This document shows positions 4,387 to 27,272 of a stretch of DNA of 64,000 bases, in pieces (the stretch's first letter is position 1; every line of letters begins with the position of its first letter). This DNA comes from Candidatus Liptonbacteria bacterium (GTDB lineage Bacteria > Patescibacteriota > Minisyncoccia > UBA6257 > JACOXY01). The stretch covers positions 7,234-71,233 of the forward strand of contig JACOXY010000014.1 of NCBI GenBank assembly GCA_016182095.1, written 5' to 3'. Position numbers and translations under genes: made by a program. The notes beneath the pieces were generated by a model that was not told where the DNA came from, made no database searches, and saw only the letters and a list, made by a program, of their open reading frames with translations.

Positions 4387-7300
4387 CTAAATATCTAAAT
4401 TTTTGACCCCAGCGGCGTGAGTTTGGATAAATTGTTTTCTGGGCTCAACTTCGTCGCCCATTAAAATATCAAAAAGTTTATCGGCGTCTTCGGCATCTTT
4501 TACGGTTACAACCAGCATTTTGCGGGTAGCGGGATTCATGGTGGTATCCCAAAGCTGATCCGGATTCATCTCGCCCAAACCTTTATATCGCTGAACATTA
4601 ACCGCAACTCGCCTATCCCCCGCCGCCTCTTCAGCGTCCGCTTTCTCCGCTTCTTTTAATTCATGCTTTCCGGCTCGCGCTTTGCCAAATTTCACGATGA
4701 TCGCTTCTTTTTCGTTTTCATTATATGCATACTGAACCTCTTTGCCTGATTGAATTCTAAAAAGCGGCGGCTGGGCTATGTAAAGATAGCCGCCATGAAT
4801 AACCTGCGGAAAATAACGATAGAAAAGGGTGAGTAGCAGGGTGCGAATGTGCGCCCCATCAACGTCGGCATCGGTCATAATAACAATCTTGTGGTAACGA
4901 ATTTTTTCTATATTAAAGTCCTGGGCGATGGCGGTCCCCAGAGCCATCACCAGCGCGCGGATTTCTTTATTGGCAAGCATTTTATCTATGCGCGATTTTT
5001 CTACATTCAAAATTTTCCCGCGCAAAGGAAGTATTGCCTGCGTGCGCCGATCGCGGCCCATTTTTCCGCTATTGTGCACAAACACGCCAGAAGCCAATGC
5101 GAAATTATGAGTTTTAGGAACTTCAAGGTCATAAACATCAACTTTTTCATTAAGCCAAAGGATTTCTTTAATTTTGTGGTTATGACGCTCTACTGCTTCA
5201 ACTAAATTTCTTGCGTCGCTTCCAAAAAATCTTTTAACAATAGTTTCGGCGCGTAGCAAGTTTTTGTCATTAGTTGCTTTTCTTAGATTCTCATACTCAC
5301 TAAAGTCAATTTCGCCTTTAGTTTCGTAGATACCGCGCAAAGCTTGCAGGGCTTTCTGCTTATAGGTTTCGTTATAAGCAAGTTTTCTCCTTAAACGAAA
5401 TTCGGGCGTCCATTGATCTTTGGTTTTGCCGCTGCGCCATTTTTTAAGCTTCTCATCATTCCATTGTATTTTAGCGAATTCGGAGTAAGCAAGACGTTTT
5501 TCTGGATGGTTTTCAAAATAAGCTCGCGTGCGATTCGCTTGATCGCGCCGATTTTTTTCTTCTGACCAATATTCTTTTTGCGCTCTGCTTAAAATGCTCG
5601 CGCTCTGTGCCCGATAGGCCGCATTATTGTGATAAAAATCCAAAAATTTATCAGTCATAAATTGCTTATAATCTTTGTCTTGCCACTGTTTTTGGGCACG
5701 CTCACTTAGCATCTTTCTCATTTGTGGAGTAGACATGCTGGCTCTAATTTTATTCCTGTATTCAGGTGTCTGCCTTATTAGACGAAGTTTTTCTAAAACT
5801 TGAGGGGATCGCAAAAAAATATCCGCCATTTTACGATGCAGGCCTAAATGATCTTCGCTTGAAAGTCGTGTAATATTTTCCGGGTTATTGTTTAGTTTAT
5901 TGAAATCTATATGGTGTCTGTGCGCGCCAATGCTTTTTTCGTAAATATTATTTTTCAGATTATAGTCGTCAGATAGCATGTGGGTAAAAATCCATTTCTG
6001 GTTCTGCGAATTAAAAACCATTTCGTATCCGTCAATTGTAATGCGACCGCCAATTTTGGATATTTTTTTGTATAACGGCATTAGCGAGTCTTGCGATAAA
6101 AGATCCCTAGCTTTTTTATAAGAACCATTAAGAAGCATGAATTCGTGGTCTGGCGTACAAATAATTTCCTCGCCATTATCAAGCACAACTTTAACAACTT
6201 CTGTATTCTTTTTAGTAATCCTAGGATAAACTATTTTCTGTATTGCAACTGCCCCATCTTTATCAATGGTGTAGCAATAGTTTTGTATGCCTTTTTTATC
6301 CTCATGGACCAAATCCTTAAAAGACAAATTGCGTCCATCAGCCAGTGAAACTTTTGTGTTGCCCGAAAAACATCCTCCGGCTGAATCGCCTTCCACTATA
6401 AACAATTCCGATTCGGCCGGGTCTCGCGATGAGCAATCGGCTAATTTCCCTGGCAAGGTTAAGCCCTCAAGAATTCCTTTTCGCAAAACGGTGTCTTTCG
6501 CGGCCTTAGCGGCTTTGCGAGCTTTAGCCGCAAGCAAACACTTTTCAACCATTCTCCGCGCGTCAGCCGGATGTTTCTCTAAAAATTCTTTCAAAGACTC
6601 GCTTACCACCGATTCAACAACCGTTCTCGCCTCCGGAGTCCCAAGGCGGGCTTTGGTTTGCCCTTCAAATTGCGGTTGGGAAAGTTTAACGGAAATGACC
6701 GCCACCAAACCTTCGCGCACGTCATCGCCCGTCAAATTGTCGTCTTTTTCCTTTAAGTAACCCTCGGTTCGCGCGTAAGAATTGATGGCGCGGCTCAAAG
6801 CCGATTTAAACCCGGTTGAGTGCATGCCGCCATCGGAAGTATAGATGTTGTTGGCAAAACTTAACTCTTTTGATTCAATATCCTCGGTATAAGTAAAAGC
6901 TACTTCTACTTCTATGTTATTTTCGCTTTTTTGGATGTAAAAAGGATCGTCCTGCAGAACTTTCGCGGCAGGAGTAAGGTGCCGCAAAAACGAAAGCAGT
7001 CCGCCGTCAAATTTAAGGGCGTAATATTTTGGCGCGTCAGTCCTTAAATCCCAAAAGTCAATTCTAACTCCCTTTGTTAAAAACGCCTGCTGGCGCAAGT
7101 GGTCCAAAATATACTTCCAATCAAATTTAATCTCTCCGCCACCGGTTGAAAAAATCTCCGGGTCTGGCTCAAAAATAACTTTAGTGCCAATTTGATCGCA
7201 TTTACCGACCCTCTTCACGACTTTCTTCGCCTTGCCTCGTTCATATTCTTGCTCATAAAGATAGCCATCCCGACAAACTTCGGCTTTAAGATAAATTGAG

Positions 7301-7716
7301 AGCGCGTTAACCACAGAAACCCCAACGCCATGCAAACCACCGGAAACTTTATAAGAATCACCGCCAAATTTGCCCCCGGCGTGAAGCGTGGTCATAACTG
7401 TTTCCAGGGCGGATTTTTTCGTCTGCTTATGAATATCAACCGGGATGCCGCGCCCATTATCGGTAACCGCCACCCTATTCCCCGGCAAAAGCTCAACTTT
7501 GATAGCAGTGGCATACCCAGCCATCGCCTCATCAATAGAATTATCAACCACTTCCCAAATCAGGTGGTGCAAGCCGGCGCTGTCGGTTGTGCCAATATAC
7601 ATCCCGGGGCGCTTTCTTACCGGCTCAAGACCCTCCAAAACATAGATGTCCTTTGCTTCATAGCTCGCGTGCTTTGACGCGTCTGGAGTTTTTTTAGTTT
7701 CTTTTACTTTTGCCAT
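4387..7716 (-). CDS. gyrB: DNA gyrase subunit B, interrupted by an in-frame intein
   Basis: 1109-aa ORF; GHKL ATPase motifs, TOPRIM EGDSAGG and a C-terminal GyrB tail; host protein is about 675 aa once the 434-aa intein is removed. Confidence 0.95.
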   Translation of the reverse strand: MAKVKETKKTPDASKHASYEAKDIYVLEGLEPVRKRPGMYIGTTDSAGLHHLIWEVVDNSIDEAMAGYATAIKVELLPGNRVAVTDNGRGIPVDIHKQTKKSALETVMTTLHAGGKFGGDSYKVSGGLHGVGVSVVNALSIYLKAEVCRDGYLYEQEYERGKAKKVVKRVGKCDQIGTKVIFEPDPEIFSTGGGEIKFDWKYILDHLRQQAFLTKGVRIDFWDLRTDAPKYYALKFDGGLLSFLRHLTPAAKVLQDDPFYIQKSENNIEVEVAFTYTEDIESKELSFANNIYTSDGGMHSTGFKSALSRAINSYARTEGYLKEKDDNLTGDDVREGLVAVISVKLSQPQFEGQTKARLGTPEARTVVESVVSESLKEFLEKHPADARRMVEKCLLAAKARKAAKAAKDTVLRKGILEGLTLPGKLADCSSRDPAESELFIVEGDSAGGCFSGNTKVSLADGRNLSFKDLVHEDKKGIQNYCYTIDKDGAVAIQKIVYPRITKKNTEVVKVVLDNGEEIICTPDHEFMLLNGSYKKARDLLSQDSLMPLYKKISKIGGRITIDGYEMVFNSQNQKWIFTHMLSDDYNLKNNIYEKSIGAHRHHIDFNKLNNNPENITRLSSEDHLGLHRKMADIFLRSPQVLEKLRLIRQTPEYRNKIRASMSTPQMRKMLSERAQKQWQDKDYKQFMTDKFLDFYHNNAAYRAQSASILSRAQKEYWSEEKNRRDQANRTRAYFENHPEKRLAYSEFAKIQWNDEKLKKWRSGKTKDQWTPEFRLRRKLAYNETYKQKALQALRGIYETKGEIDFSEYENLRKATNDKNLLRAETIVKRFFGSDARNLVEAVERHNHKIKEILWLNEKVDVYDLEVPKTHNFALASGVFVHNSGKMGRDRRTQAILPLRGKILNVEKSRIDKMLANKEIRALVMALGTAIAQDFNIEKIRYHKIVIMTDADVDGAHIRTLLLTLFYRYFPQVIHGGYLYIAQPPLFRIQSGKEVQYAYNENEKEAIIVKFGKARAGKHELKEAEKADAEEAAGDRRVAVNVQRYKGLGEMNPDQLWDTTMNPATRKMLVVTVKDAEDADKLFDILMGDEVEPRKQFIQTHAAGVKNLDI
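5071..6372 (-). other. intein (Hint splicing domain with an HNH endonuclease-like domain and a basic repeat-rich region) in gyrB, inserted immediately after EGDSAGG
   Basis: starts with Cys (CFSGNTKVSLADG...TPDHEF), ends ...VYDLEVPKTHNFALASGVFVHN followed by Ser+1; internal HRHHIDFNKLNNNPENITRLSSEDH is an HNH motif; residues 449-882 of the ORF. Confidence 0.8.
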
Positions 7717-7907
7717 TTTTAAATGAAGAGCGTAGCGATGAATCTACAAAAATGAGCACCCCGCTCTAATTTTGCTATCACCATATCTTAAAATTCAGTT
7801 GGAACTATTTATATGATATTTGGTGCGACCTGCGCGTGCCGAATAGGCACATCCCGCTAATGGGCGAAGCGGGTCGCCATGGCATATTCCGCAAAATTAG
7901 AGCGGGG
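7717..7907. promoter_or_regulatory. family-2 element upstream of gyrB: conserved leader (AAGAGCGTAGCGAT...GAGCACCCCGCTCTAATTTTGC) whose far partner GCAAAATTAGAGCGGGG lies about 115 bp away; the spacer carries GC-rich local hairpins
   Basis: 17-bp perfect inverted repeat at 7759-7775 and 7891-7907; the leader is shared with the parB and rpsR upstream regions. Confidence 0.45.
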
Positions 7908-8242
7908 TAGCCATCTCAACAAAATAATGCTCCCCCCAGGAGCTAGATTTTCTTAATATTTTATACTTACAGTTTAGCATAAAACGAGTCTAAAAACAAC
8001 AGAAATTGGACTTAAAAAGCAACGCTACCCCGCACTAAATTCCGCACATTATTTGCTCTAAACTGCTTTTATTATCGTCACGGAAACCGCCTCAACTCCG
8101 GGTAGTGAATTGAATGAGTTTCGGCTTTGGCAAGCGCTCTTTGTTCGCTAACATAGAGAATTAGCGCGGGGTTCTGTTGCTTGTAGCTTTTCGAACTGCG
8201 CGCTTCGCGCTTGTTCTTAAAGACAAGCAACGAAAAAGAGGG

Positions 8243-20894: not shown

Positions 20895-21402
20895 AAAAGA
20901 TTCTGACTAGAATTGGTAAATCTCCTTTCGTTTTCTCCCCTTGAGCGATCTTTTCAAATAAGGCTTTAGGTGAGAGCCAGAAATATTCGGTAAAGTCGTC
21001 TTTGTTGTAATCAGGTGCTTCGTCCATTTTTATCTCGTAGACCTTCATAAAGGCGGAGACGCCATCTTTTTGAGGAGTCAGATGGCCGAGTAAACGCACT
21101 TGGGCTTTATCAGTATCAATGTTTAGTTCCTCTTGTGTTTCTCGTTTAAGAGTCTGCTCGTAAGTTTCGCCATTTTCCACATGGCCACCCATACTCATAT
21201 CCAAACAAAGCGGAAAAATTCTTTTATTTGCTGCTCGCCTTGGTATCCAAATTTCACCCTTAGAATTTACGACAAACGCATTCACTACCCGAAAATTGGA
21301 AAGATGTTCAGCATATACTTCTGACCGTTTTTTCTTGCCAATGACCTGATCGTTCTCATCAACCAAGTCGAGATACTCGTCTGTTGTTGGGGTTGTGTTC
21401 AT
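20875..21402 (-). CDS. NUDIX hydrolase
   Basis: Nudix box GGHVENGETYEQTLKRETQEELNI. Confidence 0.8.
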   Translation of the reverse strand: MNTTPTTDEYLDLVDENDQVIGKKKRSEVYAEHLSNFRVVNAFVVNSKGEIWIPRRAANKRIFPLCLDMSMGGHVENGETYEQTLKRETQEELNIDTDKAQVRLLGHLTPQKDGVSAFMKVYEIKMDEAPDYNKDDFTEYFWLSPKALFEKIAQGEKTKGDLPILVRIFYGHEQN

Positions 21403-21672
21403 AAAGTTCGAATCCCTTCAGGGTTCTTACATTTTATCACTTTTTGGTTTTAAAATGTACTGCAAAATAAGAGAATTTTTACTGCTACTTTTCAAAACTA
21501 CTGGCGGCCCGAGCCAGAGATTATTATAACCGTATTTTCGGATAGAGAATATATGACGAATCTCTATTCTAAGTTTTGTATTTTAACAGGACTAATCAGG
21601 CAAGAAGCTCTAAGAGCACTTATCTAAATAATATACTGCTCCTATAAATCCTCAAAAGGGCGGAGATAGAAA

Positions 21673-22119
21673 TTAGCGAACTATATTTTGGTAATAATTG
21701 TTTTCTGTGGCGTCTTGCTCTTGGATTTGGCCCTCATATTCTCCATTACAGTAAGGACTACTTGCCCACTCTGATAAACGGCAATCAATTTTAGTTGTAT
21801 TTTTAGAGCCATAATTACCTTGATTTTCCAGTAAACCACCGAAGAATATCCATAATACAAACAGTCCCAACAAAATTCCAAAAGCTAATTTCACCCACTC
21901 TTTTGTCTCTGTTAGATTCTCTTTCGTTTGATTTGAACCTCCTTTCATGTTTTCTAAAGTATTTTTTAGAGCCAATTTTATCAATTCCTTTTCTTCTGTG
22001 CTGACTTCATTATTTCTAACTCTCTTTTCTTGTTCCATGCACTCCCTACAATTCACAGAAAAGCCAAGATATTGATTGGTTCCACATTTGGGGCATTTTT
22101 TCTCCGGAATTTCTTTCAT
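21673..22119 (-). CDS. hypothetical zinc-ribbon (CPKCG...CREC) membrane-anchored protein
   Basis: CxxC...CxxC followed by a TM helix. Confidence 0.5.
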   Translation of the reverse strand: MKEIPEKKCPKCGTNQYLGFSVNCRECMEQEKRVRNNEVSTEEKELIKLALKNTLENMKGGSNQTKENLTETKEWVKLAFGILLGLFVLWIFFGGLLENQGNYGSKNTTKIDCRLSEWASSPYCNGEYEGQIQEQDATENNYYQNIVR

Positions 22120-22125
22120 GGTAGT

Positions 22126-22851
22126 TTACCTCTTATAATCTGCGTGCCAGCTGACATTTTTAATTATAACGGTTTCCAAGTCAAAATTAATTTTTGTCTC
22201 AGTGTGTTGGTCTAATCCATACGATTCATTAATACAGTTAAATTGTACTGTAGCGACCATGCCCTCATCGTCGGTCTCTTTTTCTGAGTTTTTAAAACTA
22301 TTCCACTCTCTTTTTAATTCTTCTAATGCGCTTGGATAAATACTTTCACATTTTAAATCAGGATTTACAGAATCGGCAACGAGTATTGGCTTTTCAATTT
22401 TCTTGTTATTGATTGTTGTTATTGCTGGTCTAAACGCTATTCCCTTTCCAATATTTTTTAATTTTAGTTCTTTTTTACTCTTCTCACCCACAAAGCAAAA
22501 TATAAGATTTGGGAGGTATGAGAGACGGTTGGCCGCATGAATTTCTAAATGAACTCTTCTTATTTCACCAACGCAGAAGAATAAAACGCCAACGATTCCA
22601 AAAAATCCAGAAATTATCCAGTATTGCCATCCATGCCAAGAAAAAAGTAAAAAGTAAATAGTCGCCATGCCCGAAAGGGCACCAAGAAGATAAAATTTTC
22701 CAGATAGATCCTCTTTAAAAAGGTATGCATCAATATTCTTGTAACGGTTTAAATATTTTTTAATTTTGTGCCGCGTCAAAATTGCCAAAACAATAAGTGT
22801 TAGCAGAAGTACCCAGATTAAGAAATCTATATTTAAAATAAGCTTATTCAT
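22126..22851 (-). CDS. hypothetical integral membrane protein (241 aa)
   Basis: multiple hydrophobic helices in the N-terminal half. Confidence 0.5.
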   Translation of the reverse strand: MNKLILNIDFLIWVLLLTLIVLAILTRHKIKKYLNRYKNIDAYLFKEDLSGKFYLLGALSGMATIYFLLFSWHGWQYWIISGFFGIVGVLFFCVGEIRRVHLEIHAANRLSYLPNLIFCFVGEKSKKELKLKNIGKGIAFRPAITTINNKKIEKPILVADSVNPDLKCESIYPSALEELKREWNSFKNSEKETDDEGMVATVQFNCINESYGLDQHTETKINFDLETVIIKNVSWHADYKR

Positions 22852-22870
22852 GCAGTTGCTCTTCCATGTT

Positions 22871-23086
22871 TCAACTAAAAATCCATCCCATAAAATACGC
22901 CCAAATAATTGCGGCTACAAGCAAAACAGCCCACCTATAAATTTTGGAAAATACTGCCTTTATAAACTTTCGCACAAAAGAAATAATCCAAATTATTGGC
23001 TCTATAATAAAGCGAAAAACAATGTTTAGTATAATATCCGAGAAGTCCATTGCCATAAATTTACCCCACAAGCACAAGAGTTGCAA
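22871..23086 (-). CDS. small hypothetical membrane protein (71 aa)
   Basis: two hydrophobic helices; very AT-rich; uncertain. Confidence 0.3.
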   Translation of the reverse strand: MQLLCLWGKFMAMDFSDIILNIVFRFIIEPIIWIISFVRKFIKAVFSKIYRWAVLLVAAIIWAYFMGWIFS

Positions 23087-23101
23087 TTAGTTATCCACAG
23101 A

Positions 23102-23163
23102 CTTTCGGTTTGCTTTCGGGTCTATTTGCTATAATTATAATATACCGAAAGTAAACCGAAAAT
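23102..23163. promoter_or_regulatory. candidate operator: 17-bp inverted repeat TTTCGGTTTGCTTTCGG, 26 bp, CCGAAAGTAAACCGAAA, bracketing a TATAAT -10 box 4 nt upstream of the LexA-methyltransferase gene
   Basis: one mismatch between the arms; each arm holds two CTTTCGG/CCGAAAG heptads; TATAATTATAATATA lies in the spacer. Confidence 0.5.
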
Positions 23164-23166
23164 AGA

Positions 23167-24501
23167 ATGATTACACAAAAGAAAAAAGAAATATTAGATT
23201 TCGTAAAAAGTTATTCTAAAAAGAGAGGGTATTCTCCTACCATTCCTGAAATCGCAACAAAAATTGGACGGGCTTTTGGAACCATTCACGAACATCTTCG
23301 GGGGCTAGAGGAAGATGGCTTTATCCAACTTAACAAAAATCAACGCCGAGGAATAGCGATTCTTGAGTCAACCCCGATGATTAAAATTCCACTACTTGGC
23401 ACCATAGCCGCCGGCTCACCTTTAACACTCTTTGATGTGCCACAAGAAACAATCGCTGTTCCAAAAAGCAAGGTTCACTCATCTTCGGAAGTATATGCGC
23501 TTCGTGTTGTTGGGAACAGCATGATTGATGAAAATATAAATGATGGAGATATTGTTTTAGTGCACCACCAAAAAACTGCAGAAAACGGGCAGAAGGTTGT
23601 CGCGCTTATTGACAACCACGAAGCAACGCTAAAGAAATTCTACAAGGAGAGGGGGCAAATCCGCTTACAGCCAGCAAACAAAAATATGGAGCCGCTTATT
23701 TTTAGAAATGGCCGAGATGTTTCTATACAGGGAGTAATCATTGATGTTATAAGAGAAGAAACACCGGCATCTATTTCTTTGCCAGAAGTAAAAACAGAAA
23801 TTAAACAATATAAAAAACTGCCACTTAATCAAATTATTCACGGAGATGCCGTGGAGGGGTTAAAGAAACTACCAGACGACTCTATTGATTTAGTAGTCAC
23901 CGATCCCCCATATGGAATCAGTAGAGAGCTTAATTGCAAAGGTCAAAGATTGGGAACAACGGCAAAACTGAATTTTAATTTTGGTGAGTGGGATACCTTT
24001 AATAAAGATTGGTTTGAGATTGCGTTGAAAAAAACTAGAGGCTGGATGATGACCTTTTGTGCAAAAAAAGACGTAGGCTTTTTTATTGATGGTTTAGAAA
24101 AAAATGGATTTATTGCAATTGACGTGTTGGTTTGGCAGAAACCCGACCCCATTCCTCTAAACGCGAAATCCAGATTTCTTAATGCATGGGAGGCGGTAGT
24201 GATAGGCAAAAAGCCAGGCGCCATTTGGAATAGCAAATATGAACACAACATCATTAAAGTTCAGGCCCCCAAAGGGAAGAGCAGGATTCATCCCACACAG
24301 AAACCTGTTGAACTTATAAAAAAATTAATCAATTTAACCACCAAAGAGGGTGATGTTGTATTAGACCCGTTTATGGGTAGTGGAACAACAGCCGTAGCCT
24401 GTTTAGAAACGAAAAGAAACTACGTTGGTTTTGAAATATCAGAGGAGTATAGGAACCAATCCCTAAAAAGAATAAAAGCACTGCCAAAAGAGTTATTTTA
24501 A
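23167..24501 (+). CDS. fusion protein: complete LexA-type repressor (HTH plus S24 self-cleaving peptidase) joined to a beta-class N6-adenine/N4-cytosine DNA methyltransferase
   Basis: residues 1-198 align with LexA (cleavage site TIAAG|SP, Ser in VVGNSM, Lys in ATLKKF); residues about 205-444 carry DPPY (DLVVTDPPYGI) followed by FMGSGTTAVA. Confidence 0.8.
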   Translation: MITQKKKEILDFVKSYSKKRGYSPTIPEIATKIGRAFGTIHEHLRGLEEDGFIQLNKNQRRGIAILESTPMIKIPLLGTIAAGSPLTLFDVPQETIAVPKSKVHSSSEVYALRVVGNSMIDENINDGDIVLVHHQKTAENGQKVVALIDNHEATLKKFYKERGQIRLQPANKNMEPLIFRNGRDVSIQGVIIDVIREETPASISLPEVKTEIKQYKKLPLNQIIHGDAVEGLKKLPDDSIDLVVTDPPYGISRELNCKGQRLGTTAKLNFNFGEWDTFNKDWFEIALKKTRGWMMTFCAKKDVGFFIDGLEKNGFIAIDVLVWQKPDPIPLNAKSRFLNAWEAVVIGKKPGAIWNSKYEHNIIKVQAPKGKSRIHPTQKPVELIKKLINLTTKEGDVVLDPFMGSGTTAVACLETKRNYVGFEISEEYRNQSLKRIKALPKELF

Positions 24502-25475
24502 TTCTCTGGATACACAAGCATTGCTTTAATGCTGCGCAAATCCTTTAAATTAAGAGAGGTTTGTTTCCGACGAATCTCTTTTTTTAGCGACAAGAATCTT
24601 CTCCTTTTTTCGCGTAACTTTTTTCTGAGAAGTTTAACTACTTTCTTGGCATCAGCACTGTATATTTTTTTGACTAGGAATTCATTTTTATCAACACTGG
24701 CAAGTATTATGCTTTTATCTACAAGGTACTTATTCAAAACTTCGTTTGAAATATCTTGGAAGCTCCACGTGAATCCCTTTGCAACTTTATATTCGTACAT
24801 GTTGCCATGATTATCTTCCGCATCATGCTTCGCTTGTTCCGACTGAACTTTATGGTTTAGTTTCAGCGCTACTAAAACCTCCCAAAATTTATTACTTGTA
24901 AGAATTCCTTTTGTTCCGGTTGCTGTTTCAATTTTGCTAGCAATTTTAATAATGCGCGTAATCCAAGATAAGTAATGCCCATTATAATTTTTGATAGTTT
25001 GTCTCGTGAGATTCAGGTTATTTTCAATTTGCCTGGAGCTCACGTTGATCATTTTCCTGCTATTTCTTATTTTTTTAGTTGCTTGTGCTAGATAATCTGA
25101 CATGACTTGCCCGGGCACTTCGTAATACCAATCAAATTTCGGGAAAGAAACATTAACGTCTTGTATGTGCGCGAAAATAACAGCTTCGGCGTTACTAAGT
25201 TTAGTTATGGTGGTATTGGAAAAGTCGTTAAAAGTCCATGAATGATTAGAGCTACTCTCTTTGTAGTGCTTATATTCAAACTCACCCCCTGCTGAATTTT
25301 TGGCATCACGTGAGCCAGAGTGGCCGGGAATAAGAGTGTGGTCTAGAGCGTCTGCAATAAGCACCTCAAATATTTTACTGTTCGTAATAATATCGGTAAC
25401 ACCAAAAGTTTTATAAAAATCAAACTGGATCTGCTTTAACTGCTCAATAAAATCATTTATACTATTAGTATTCAT
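24498..25475 (-). CDS. putative single-chain restriction endonuclease with two tandem PD-(D/E)XK-like domains (internal duplication) and a basic C-terminal tail
   Basis: repeated blocks KIFEVLIADALDH...RDAKNSAGGEFEYK and KFWEVLVALKLNH...HDAEDNHGNMYEYK; start may be Met1 (25493) or Met7 (25475); wedged between two methyltransferase genes. Confidence 0.55.
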   Translation of the reverse strand: MNTNSINDFIEQLKQIQFDFYKTFGVTDIITNSKIFEVLIADALDHTLIPGHSGSRDAKNSAGGEFEYKHYKESSSNHSWTFNDFSNTTITKLSNAEAVIFAHIQDVNVSFPKFDWYYEVPGQVMSDYLAQATKKIRNSRKMINVSSRQIENNLNLTRQTIKNYNGHYLSWITRIIKIASKIETATGTKGILTSNKFWEVLVALKLNHKVQSEQAKHDAEDNHGNMYEYKVAKGFTWSFQDISNEVLNKYLVDKSIILASVDKNEFLVKKIYSADAKKVVKLLRKKLREKRRRFLSLKKEIRRKQTSLNLKDLRSIKAMLVYPEN

Positions 25476-25477
25476 CG

Positions 25478-26317
25478 ATGAAAAGAATAACACTAAAAAG
25501 AAAATTTAGCACTGCGGCAGAAAGCTCCTTGATCTTCGGGGACGCTTTAAATATTTTGCGATCTATTCCAAGTCACTCCATTGACCACTGCATAACTGAC
25601 CCCCCGTATAATATTTCCGGATACGACTATAAAAAAAAGATTGGATGGCTCCAATCAAATAGCGCCTGGGTAGAGGAGAAAAACTTTTCAAAGATTGATG
25701 CTCGGTGGGATAAGTTTTCTGATAACGATTATCTAGCTTTTACCAAAAGCTGGATCTCTGAAGTAGCCAGAGTTCTCAAGCCAAATGGGAACATTATAAT
25801 TTTTGGTTCGTATCACAATATTTATCAAATCGGCTCTATTCTACAGGATATTGATCGTAAGCTAATTAACTCTGTTGTATGGTATAAACGAAACGCATTT
25901 CCAAATGTAACACAAAGGATGCTTTGTGAGAGCACAGAGCATATAATTTGGGCTGTAAATGAAACCAAAAAAAATGCCAAGAACTGGACATTTAATTATA
26001 AAGCACTTAAAGAACTAAACGGCGGAGTACAAATGAGAAATATGTGGGATATACCATCAACTCCGGTTTCCGAAAAAAGGCACGGCAAGCATCCTTCTCA
26101 AAAACCGATTGAACTCATAAGCCGCCTTGTTCTTGGCGGGACCAACAAGAAAGATATTATCATTGATCCATTTATGGGTAGCGGCACTCTTCCGGTTGTG
26201 GCGCTAGTAAACGAAAGAGGATTTGTAGGAATTGACAACGATAAACAATACTGCAACCTGGCGCTAAAAAGAGTAGTGGATACTAGAAATCATCCAAAAC
26301 AAAACAAGGTTACTTAG
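25478..26317 (+). CDS. DNA methyltransferase (beta-class N6A/N4C)
   Basis: DHCITDPPYNI (motif IV) near the N-terminus and FMGSGTLPVVAL (motif I) near the C-terminus. Confidence 0.85.
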   Translation: MKRITLKRKFSTAAESSLIFGDALNILRSIPSHSIDHCITDPPYNISGYDYKKKIGWLQSNSAWVEEKNFSKIDARWDKFSDNDYLAFTKSWISEVARVLKPNGNIIIFGSYHNIYQIGSILQDIDRKLINSVVWYKRNAFPNVTQRMLCESTEHIIWAVNETKKNAKNWTFNYKALKELNGGVQMRNMWDIPSTPVSEKRHGKHPSQKPIELISRLVLGGTNKKDIIIDPFMGSGTLPVVALVNERGFVGIDNDKQYCNLALKRVVDTRNHPKQNKVT

Positions 26318-26635
26318 AATTTTGAGCAAAAAAGCAATAATCGGTTCGAACTCGCCGCCAAATTCATAAAATCCATAAAACAAGCCGAAATTATCGCTTT
26401 GCAAGAAAATCCCGAGCAGAGTCGGGATTTTCTAAAAAAGATTGGTTCGAACTTCCGTTTGAGCGGGCGGGAATTGTTTTGCGACTTCAAAAATCCCTTT
26501 CAAATCCTATGCGAGCGGCGCGTCTCGCGCCGCGAGCTTGCCTCTTCAAATTTGCATTTTCCCAATTGGCGTCGCGTAATAAATCAAAGATTTACACGCG
26601 ACAGCAATGTAAAATTTGCAAAGCAAATTTGTACG

Positions 26636-26726
26636 TGGCGGAGGCGGAAGGATTCGAACCTTCGATACCCTTGCGGGTATAACAGTTTTCAAGACTGTTT
26701 GTTTCAACCACTCACACACGCCTCCA
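26636..26726 (-). tRNA. tRNA-Ser (anticodon UGA), long variable arm, CCA encoded
   Basis: GGAGGCG acceptor, anticodon loop CUUGAAA, variable arm AUACCCGCAAGGGUAUC, T-loop UUCGAAU, ends CGCCUCC-G-CCA. Confidence 0.85.
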
Positions 26727-26885
26727 GAAACTACAAAGCTTTATACAGTTTTTCTACCTCATAGTCAATCTTTCCTGGATTTATTTTTTCTTTTATTATC
26801 ATGCATGTATCTTATCACTAAAATATTAAATTGGGTAACTTTCTGGGTGCGTGATTTTTTCCTATTTTTGCCGTAAGATAAGCAC

Positions 26886-27272
26886 ATGGAGATCCAAAAG
26901 AAAAAGACAAAACTAAATCGCGGTATGTTCAAGCGCGCCATTTTCATCTTTGCGGGACTTTTGCTTTCAGCCTTTATACTAAATGCGATTATGTTAACTG
27001 CTGGATATAAAACCGGCTTTTTTCATCGTTGGGCAGAAGAACAATATTTTGGGAGAGTCACAGAAATCAGCGAGAATGGTTTTCTAATTGTAGACGAAAA
27101 AAATAATGAAAAGCCGGTTTTAATTAAAAAAGACACGCGGATTAGAATGGGGAGAGAATTCGCCACCAAGGAAGACCTGCTTGTAAATAATTATGTGATT
27201 GTAGTTGGGTCGCAAAATAATCAGGGACAAGTTGAAGCTAGAGTTATCCGCATTTTTAACGATAGCCGATAA
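26886..27272 (+). CDS. hypothetical membrane-anchored protein (128 aa)
   Basis: N-terminal TM helix; clean ORF. Confidence 0.45.
   Translation: MEIQKKKTKLNRGMFKRAIFIFAGLLLSAFILNAIMLTAGYKTGFFHRWAEEQYFGRVTEISENGFLIVDEKNNEKPVLIKKDTRIRMGREFATKEDLLVNNYVIVVGSQNNQGQVEARVIRIFNDSR

Follow-up and report, generated by a model that had tools for sequence, protein, structure and literature searches.

What does the gene between the two DNA methyltransferase genes of a Candidatus Liptonbacteria bacterium encode, and on what kind of DNA site would its product act? The gene, hereafter R, lies on the reverse strand of a 64,000-nucleotide stretch of contig JACOXY010000014.1 (the window, meaning the whole of the DNA analysed), between the gene of a LexA-like repressor fused to a methyltransferase (M1) and that of a second methyltransferase (M2). 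We consider it probable that R is the nuclease in a Type II restriction-modification cassette of three genes, in which lexA-M1 and R converge and R and M2 diverge, and that it is a natural single-chain pseudo-dimer of the PvuII type, Type IIT-like and directed at an asymmetric site. In the first-pass annotation, the gene was an open reading frame (ORF) of 331 amino acids starting from GTG (24498..25493, reverse strand). This ORF is present and contains the peptides quoted there, but the true start is probably the ATG at 25473-25475 and not the GTG at 25493, judging from protein comparisons: an identical 325-residue protein deposited from a Candidatus Liptonbacteria metagenome-assembled genome (P0001) starts at this ATG, and 31/31 aligned homologs begin at or near its Met. 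Because the deposited protein and the homologs all start at that Met, R is taken here as 24498..25475 on the reverse strand (325 amino acids plus the stop codon).

R is internally repeated. In a Smith-Waterman alignment, the two halves score 112 against each other, compared with 30.9±5.0 (maximum 60) in 500 shuffles, none of which (0/500) reached 112, and hhalign of two half-profiles built from 32 homologs gave a probability of 99.0% (E=4.8e-18, 113 columns, 26% identity). The internal duplication had been proposed in the first-pass annotation, with the formal alignment of the halves set beforehand as its possible refutation; the halves turn out to be significantly self-similar, far beyond chance. 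The repeat spans nearly the whole unit, C-terminal segment included (RKMINVS...QIE in half 1, RRKQTSL...DL in half 2). Based on hhalign against PvuII and on conservation, domain 1 is a PvuII-like PD-(D/E)XK domain of residues 1-163 (24987..25475, reverse strand) with D57/E67/K69, and domain 2, for which the structural model was also used, is a diverged PvuII-like domain of residues 164-325 (24501..24986, reverse strand) with D218/E228/K230 and a Lys/Arg-rich helix at 276-296. The Lys/Arg-rich region had been described as a tail; its richness is real (16/30 residues at 276-305), but since the repeat includes the C-terminal segment, the stretch is part of domain 2. Indeed, it aligns with domain 1 residues 122-162 and forms, in the model, a confident long helix (276-296) plus a strand of domain 2.

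Pfam and NCBIfam scans of the window R protein alone gave no significant match, and a phmmer search of the PDB with the single R sequence returned only a chance match. The Pfam model Endonuc-PvuII (PF09225), with a gathering score of 25 bits, is matched above that score by two homologs, P0045 (28.2 bits) and P0094 (30.2 bits), each over two stretches. When the family profile was compared with the PDB, PvuII chains came out on top, the best being 3KSK, an engineered single-chain PvuII, again in two stretches (E=8.8e-5). Using a PvuII sequence that agrees exactly with the PDB, hhalign aligned PvuII with domain 1 (probability 92.4%, E=5e-7) and with domain 2 (probability 83.4%, E=8.5e-6), placing D57/E67/K69 and D218/E228/K230 in turn on PvuII D58/E68/K70. 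The D-to-E spacing of nine residues in both halves is that of PvuII.

The AlphaFold2 model of R (predicted local distance difference test, pLDDT, 91.2; predicted template modelling score, pTM, 0.85) points in the same direction. Foldseek ranks 3KSK first over the whole length (E=1e-14, template modelling score 0.62-0.67, ~335 columns), followed by PvuII monomers and then by NhoI, Eco15I-N and DpnI; the model also matches Hjc and RecU-type nuclease folds. The whole modelled chain superposes on both PvuII subunits simultaneously, and the predicted domain packing therefore reproduces the PvuII dimer, not only the domain fold. Structure prediction, which had been set beforehand to test for a non-nuclease fold, returned a PvuII-type PD-(D/E)XK fold in a PvuII-dimer-like arrangement, with a cleft like that of the PvuII dimer. 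With a conserved catalytic motif and matching fold, R belongs to the PD-(D/E)XK superfamily. As judged from alignments and model, it is composed of two ~160-residue PvuII-like PD-(D/E)XK domains, arisen by duplication or fusion, that together form one predicted DNA-binding cleft with two putative catalytic sites. R departs from the PvuII homodimer, made of a single ~157-residue subunit, in being one 325-residue chain of two diverged copies.

A representative search also returned other, far more divergent two-domain PvuII-like proteins of ~280-355 residues, each with two D...E-Y-K domains (P0180, P0189, P0208, P0212, P0216, P0227 and P0235), alongside single-domain relatives such as P0199, with the NFHFGARK motif in common. 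Since such other two-domain families exist, tandemisation of the PvuII fold was probably recurrent, in several lineages. Half-length proteins from this search were considered as naturally split R1/R2 enzymes and rejected: those of the C-terminal half begin at Met142, an invariant internal residue (MINVS...), and they are therefore truncated gene calls.

The genes on both sides of R encode methyltransferases. M1 (444 residues; 23167..24501, forward strand) joins, according to Pfam and NCBIfam, an entire LexA-like repressor, helix-turn-helix (HTH) and S24 peptidase included (residues 1-~197), to a methyltransferase domain of the beta-class N6/N4 type (DPPY). Its Pfam matches are LexA_DNA_bind, Peptidase_S24 and N6_N4_Mtase, and its 177.3 bits against the NCBIfam lexA model TIGR00498 (cut-off 110.95) place it in the LexA family. 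The translation shows AAG (IAAGSP), GNSM and TLKK motifs, which presumably correspond to the Ala-Gly cleavage site (A84-G85) and the Ser/Lys dyad (S119 and K156) of E. coli LexA. M2 (279 residues; 25478..26317, forward strand; Pfam and NCBIfam) is a CcrM/HinfI-like beta-class N6/N4 DNA methyltransferase (DPPY), matching Pfam N6_N4_Mtase at E=2.9e-47 and scoring 219.6 bits with the NCBIfam CcrM model, under its equivalog cut-off of 830. M1 and M2 are 27% identical. PADLOC matched R to a Type II restriction endonuclease (E=1.6e-5) and both M1 and M2 to MTase_II.

The three genes are tightly packed. The convergent stop codons of R and M1 have TTAA in common (24498..24501), and the 4-nucleotide 3' overlap pointed out in the first-pass annotation is real; it recurs in most loci of the same layout, with 4 nucleotides also in L001, L058, L016 and L064 and 6-26 in most other class A loci. 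At the other end, the divergent start codons of R and M2 stand back to back at 25473..25480 (CATCGATG), without an intergenic region. Of the two arrangements considered earlier, abutting and overlapping 5' ends, the first is borne out, with 2 nucleotides between the R ATG and the M2 start, but the second, an overlap of 16 nucleotides with M2, would need the unlikely GTG. A gap of 0-11 nucleotides between the two starts is kept in ~10 related loci (L001, L058, L007-L013 and L017). Such tight linkage of a nuclease to its methyltransferases, found across phyla, is that of a Type II restriction-modification system.

R homologs number 558 at E<=0.001, and a scan of one genome per species gave 62 loci. 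The carriers are Patescibacteria (the candidate phyla radiation, CPR), DPANN archaea, Nitrosopumilus, Prochlorococcus/Synechococcus, Pelagibacteraceae including Pelagibacter, Cytophagales, Clostridia (C. difficile among them) and others; isolates with a member of the family include C. difficile GCA_018855715.1, Petralouisia muris NM01_1-7b and Bovifimicola ammoniilytica. Wherever a related locus has enough flanking sequence, it holds two different methyltransferases, in one of three layouts. In layout A, which includes the window locus, M2 and R diverge and M1 converges on R; in layout B, R converges on M2, behind which a gene for a large (about 500 residues) N6_N4 enzyme lies in the same orientation as M2; in layout C, R converges on the gene of the large N6_N4 enzyme, followed in the same orientation by that of a D12-class enzyme. 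M1 orthologs are convergent to R in all class A loci and M2 orthologs adjoin R in class A and B loci. The types of methyltransferase are swapped between layouts, but their number stays constant at two. The genes around the three-gene cassette are not conserved, but the cassette is. This constant retention of two methyltransferases is a hallmark of asymmetric-site systems.

With tblastn, R found no match among plasmids and one only among phages, in an unannotated gut contig. This record, MT836948.1 ("Bacteriophage sp.", human gut, 8.2 kilobases), contains at 7488-8201 a homolog 48.5% identical over 74% of the query, which runs to within 2 nucleotides of the contig end. In C. difficile (L004/L005, 5001-6152) and in other Clostridia loci, the cassette is located beside a serine recombinase and is probably on a mobile element. 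Two Cytophagales loci (L053, 5001-5985, and L060, 5001-6240) have an interrupted R gene, one with a frame change after residue about 215 and the other with ~240 extra nucleotides between residues about 126 and 123; these genes may be pseudogenes or insertions.

Would the two domains read the same or different sequences? PvuII reads DNA with the loop of Asp34, the segment Ser81-His85 and the strand of Asn140/Asn141. At or near the corresponding positions, both halves of R have invariant residues, as counted in a set of 125 full-length homologs whose identity goes down to about 45%. The role of PvuII Asp34 is confirmed by the title of PDB entry 3PVI. The residues are N32-S33-K34, N77-H78-x-W80 and N138-x-R140-x-M142-x-N144 in half 1, and T193-S194-N195-K196, W237-x-F239 and R302-R303-x-Q305 in half 2: invariant within the family and different between the halves. 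They may well contact DNA, and their pattern is as would be expected if the domains read two different half-sites, with the whole family sharing one specificity. These residues speak against the view that R is a fused homodimer of unchanged symmetry, cutting a palindromic site as PvuII does, with methyltransferases that duplicate each other or have separate purposes. The two halves do have the N/S-S/N-K and E-Y-K motifs in common, and the engineered single-chain 3KSK keeps palindromic specificity, according to the accounts of Simoncsits et al. 2001 given in PMC4081073 and PMC3850674. By contrast, the halves of R are only 26% identical, the putative reading positions are invariant yet differ from one half to the other, two non-identical methyltransferases are kept in all three layouts despite the exchange of types, and CAGCTG, the PvuII site, shows no depletion in the window, with 10 copies for 10.9 expected. 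We therefore regard a palindromic fused homodimer as improbable.

Both halves also retain a nuclease core. The first-pass annotation had reported a D-x(8-10)-ExK core in each half, and these are D57-x9-E67-x-K69 (codons at 25305-07, 25275-77 and 25269-71, reverse strand) and D218-x9-E228-x-K230 (24822-24, 24792-94 and 24786-88, reverse strand). D57 is retained in 123/125 homologs and E67 in 124/125; K69, D218, E228 and K230 are present in 125/125. By this conservation, both catalytic sites are kept under selection as nucleases. If only one domain were catalytic and the other a degenerate DNA-binding or allosteric copy, R would nick or have to dimerise on DNA. Sau3AI, a known pseudo-dimeric restriction endonuclease whose second, C-terminal domain is non-catalytic, provides a precedent (Foldseek ranks 39-46), and two homologs of R have N at position 57. 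Against such an arrangement, which we judge quite unlikely, both triads are present in nearly the entire family with the exact spacing of PvuII, and the two modelled domains superpose on both subunits of the active PvuII dimer.

Two further alternatives are very unlikely. R could be a nuclease of the modification-dependent kind (Type IIM/IV), akin to NhoI, Eco15I or DpnI, that attacks foreign methylated DNA and has nothing to do with the adjacent methyltransferases; however, PvuII scores much higher than these enzymes, the tight, overlapping linkage to two methyltransferases at each sufficiently flanked locus, across many phyla, is a classical restriction-modification signature, and a methyl-dependent nuclease beside its cognate methyltransferases would be self-toxic. 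That R is a PD-(D/E)XK nuclease of repair, recombination or a mobile element, merely lying between methyltransferase genes, is equally hard to reconcile with scores far below those of PvuII, with a cassette that is conserved when its outside neighbourhood is not, and with a patchy spread over bacteria and archaea as expected of mobile restriction-modification systems.

If R is a single-chain PvuII-type restriction endonuclease for an asymmetric site, its monomer would bind one DNA site, each domain reading one half-site and cutting one strand with its own Asp/Glu/Lys metal site. The cut would fall inside a short asymmetric (or quasi-palindromic) sequence or at its centre, and PvuII-type geometry would give blunt or near-blunt ends. 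Host DNA would be protected by the two beta-class (DPPY, probably N6-methyladenine, m6A) methyltransferases, one per strand; two different ones would be needed because the strands of an asymmetric site differ. The first-pass annotation had likewise derived an asymmetric site from the pseudo-dimer and its two methyltransferases, and we infer the same from the co-conservation of the methyltransferases, the low identity between M1 and M2 and the divergent invariant reading residues. Its label for the site, Type IIS-like, was imprecise. The two PvuII-like domains account for the whole chain, recognition and catalysis are integrated, and there is no extra domain as in FokI-like architecture; because R is without a separate recognition domain, Type IIS-like is not the best label, and Type IIT is closest. 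In Type IIT enzymes, the two catalytic sites differ from each other and are sometimes located in one chain; these enzymes cleave within or beside an asymmetric site and generally come with two methyltransferases (PMC4081073). In R, two non-identical domains with conserved triads would provide the two different catalytic sites, and two separate methyltransferases flank the gene, as they accompany it at every locus with enough flank.

Several observations weigh against this reading. The window R protein gives no match to Endonuc-PvuII even at E<=10, and its link to PvuII is carried by homologs, profiles and predicted structure. The reading residues are assigned by alignment to PvuII and by secondary-structure position, not from a DNA complex, and even a fused pseudo-dimer might in principle read a palindrome. 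All public copies of R are annotated "hypothetical protein". When 22800-26900 was scanned for promoters and terminators, 7 promoter-like sites came up, no more than in shuffled sequence (11.9±3.7). Finally, the depletion of the word CTCAG, a weak lead to the recognition sequence, is strong in this window only.

CTCAG/CTGAG, which has one adenine on each strand, is the most depleted 5-mer of the window: 12 copies were observed and 61-104 expected, depending on the model, a five-fold depletion at 61. Three of the 12 copies lie in or beside the cassette (22198, 22284 and 24625). In 60 other carrier loci, the CTCAG ratio is 0.75, next to 0.66 for GGWCC and 0.77 for GCWGC, two unrelated quasi-palindromes, and CTCAG is not clearly depleted in the close relatives L058 and L001. 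Since other carriers are thus no lower than unrelated quasi-palindromes and the close relatives show no clear depletion, CTCAG was rejected as evidence for the recognition site. A literature search for CTCAG as a methylation motif found none, an absence that is no proof of novelty. Sites of BmgBI (CACGTC), BsrBI (CCGCTC) and PleI are not depleted in the window. AGGCT/AGCCT is depleted about three-fold (27 copies, 76 expected). The depletion of CTCAG/CTGAG and of AGGCT/AGCCT suggests that this genome is under restriction pressure at both pairs of words.

How might such a cassette be controlled? Its regulators vary from one lineage to another. In the window and in L001, L058, L019, L064 and L065, M1 carries a fused LexA-like module; in L009, the LexA-like protein is encoded by a stand-alone gene of 214 amino acids directly upstream of an unfused M1, and in L010 a LexA-like coding region, detected by a weaker tblastn match only, has the same position. 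These arrangements suggest that the LexA-like module is a dedicated, possibly RecA-responsive, controller of the cassette. We searched the literature for LexA-methyltransferase fusions and found none, which does not prove novelty. In four loci of DPANN and Zambryskibacteria (L021, L023, L025 and L033), an 86-residue winged-helix ORF (MarR/TrmB/HTH_45-like) is located immediately upstream of R, between M2 and R (about 345 nucleotides), and looks like a controller-protein analogue in place of the LexA fusion. The Clostridia R proteins carry an N-terminal extension of ~55 residues that is ribbon-helix-helix-like (CopG/HicB-like; weak Pfam matches).

A candidate operator/promoter of lexA-M1 lies at 23103..23161, 6 nucleotides before the ATG. 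It consists of a 17-nucleotide inverted repeat (TTTCGGTTTGCTTTCGG / CCGAAAGTAAACCGAAA), whose arms (23103-23119 and 23145-23161) are 94% complementary, with two TATAAT hexamers between them. The motif occurs once in the 64 kilobases, compared with 0.13 occurrences expected. A related sequence, TTGACTTTCG-N5-6-TTTCGGTAT(T/A)AT, is found upstream of lexA-M1 in L001, L019, L064 and L065, but not in L058, and in these four loci TTTCG(G) repeats are placed between -35-like and -10-like hexamers. At the inverted repeat of the window, the LexA module would probably repress its own synthesis by binding over its own promoter. Since R and M2 start back to back, coding sequence takes up all the space that promoters or ribosome-binding sites would need; the promoters of R and M2 would lie inside each other's coding sequence, or the mRNAs would be (nearly) leaderless. 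A TTAACT-16-TATACT match ends 14 nucleotides before the M2 ATG, within a scan that is not above chance overall. An extended -10-like sequence, TGnTAT(A/G)(G/C)T, located 8-10 nucleotides before the R start in 6/7 close loci, was set aside: on the other strand it also encodes conserved M2 residues, which makes it uninterpretable.

These elements could be combined into a more far-reaching reading, which we hold to be doubtful. R would then be the founding example of a very widespread single-chain PvuII-type family with a new asymmetric specificity (possibly CTCAG/CTGAG), in a cassette wired to DNA damage through LexA-M1. Under-methylation would lead to self-cutting, self-cutting to RecA-stimulated self-cleavage of the fusion, and this to derepression and increased methylation, closing an SOS-coupled safety loop, and the overlapping back-to-back promoters of R and M2 would form a switch that lets only one of the two fire at a time. 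Strand-specific nickases would be available ready-made, as triad mutants of either domain.

Housekeeping genes occupy the window outside the cassette: gyrB with an intein, rpoB, rpoC, bipA and relA/spoT. The intein-containing gyrB is found at window 4387-7716 (reverse strand), with a Pfam Intein_splicing match over residues 457-882 of its 1109-residue product. The cassette lies in a stretch of lower G+C content (window 21200-26400; 0.32-0.39, compared with 0.42-0.58 nearby), which also contains, upstream of the cassette, two ORFs without Pfam matches (21673-22119 and 22126-22851) and which adjoins a tRNA-Ser(TGA) gene (26636-26725) on the 3' side of the latter. This stretch may be an acquired island; a direct repeat of the tRNA-Ser 3' end delimiting an integrated island was searched for and none was found.

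Type IIT enzymes with two sites in a single chain are already known, as are restriction-modification systems that have two methyltransferases, and the specialists' view of restriction is unchanged by our analysis. We found no description of a natural tandem PvuII-like enzyme in the searchable literature, although absence there is no proof of novelty. The cassette's more unusual component may be the fusion of LexA with a methyltransferase. If our assignment is correct, it gives a function to more than 500 "hypothetical proteins" of CPR, DPANN, Nitrosopumilus, Prochlorococcus, Pelagibacter and Clostridia of the gut, among them C. difficile. Being small and monomeric, with two separable catalytic sites, such an enzyme would be a good base for nicking enzymes and perhaps for a new specificity. 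The step from homodimer and palindrome to single chain and asymmetric site is textbook knowledge for LAGLIDADG enzymes and was, until now, only engineered for PvuII; the R family would mean that restriction enzymes took this pseudo-dimer step in nature, and distant searches indicate that they did so more than once.

Which known systems does R resemble most? In the monomeric LAGLIDADG homing endonucleases (I-DmoI and I-AniI), compared with the homodimeric I-CreI, a subunit has been duplicated and fused, leaving the halves free to adapt to an asymmetric site. R follows the same evolutionary logic, but differs in fold, in catalytic chemistry and in its role, restriction instead of homing. R.PvuII (Type IIP, CAG^CTG; PDB 1PVI/1PVU; PF09225) shares with R the domain fold, the D-x9-E-x-K spacing, the helix-first N-terminus and the two-domain cleft. 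However, it is a homodimer of a 157-residue subunit with one N4-methylcytosine (m4C) methyltransferase and a C protein, whereas R is one 325-residue chain with two DPPY methyltransferases and different regulators. Identity between R and PvuII is 15-18% in structural alignments, compared with 26% between the halves of R, and with this identity, its failure against the Pfam model when searched alone and its non-homodimeric nature, R is not a PvuII ortholog. The engineered 3KSK is an artificial fusion of two identical copies, whereas the R family occurs in nature, is old and widespread, and has diverged halves. The C-REase fusions of PvuII orthologs, in which a controller is joined to the restriction endonuclease (REase), such as CR.NsoJS138I (PMC3850674), parallel the Clostridia ribbon-helix-helix-R proteins and LexA-M1 as regulator-enzyme fusions; they are, however, true PvuII orthologs (50-69% identity), homodimeric and with an XRE-type C protein, whereas here a LexA/S24-type regulator is fused to the methyltransferase. 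Sau3AI resembles R in having two PD-(D/E)XK-like domains in one chain, but its C-terminal domain is non-catalytic and allosteric and its GATC site palindromic, whereas R conserves both triads; its structural similarity to R is insignificant (Foldseek E about 0.3). The closest likeness is to the Type IIT enzymes, which are compared here by description only: the heterodimeric BbvCI/Bpu10I and the single-chain Mva1269I, BsrI, BsrBI and BmgBI have two different catalytic sites, an asymmetric site that they cleave inside or beside it, and two methyltransferases, as would hold for R (PMC4081073, PMC6326814), and BbvCI can be tethered into an active single chain (same sources). A literature search for sequence information on BmgBI and BsrBI found none; characterised enzymes such as these might belong to the R family or to a sister family.

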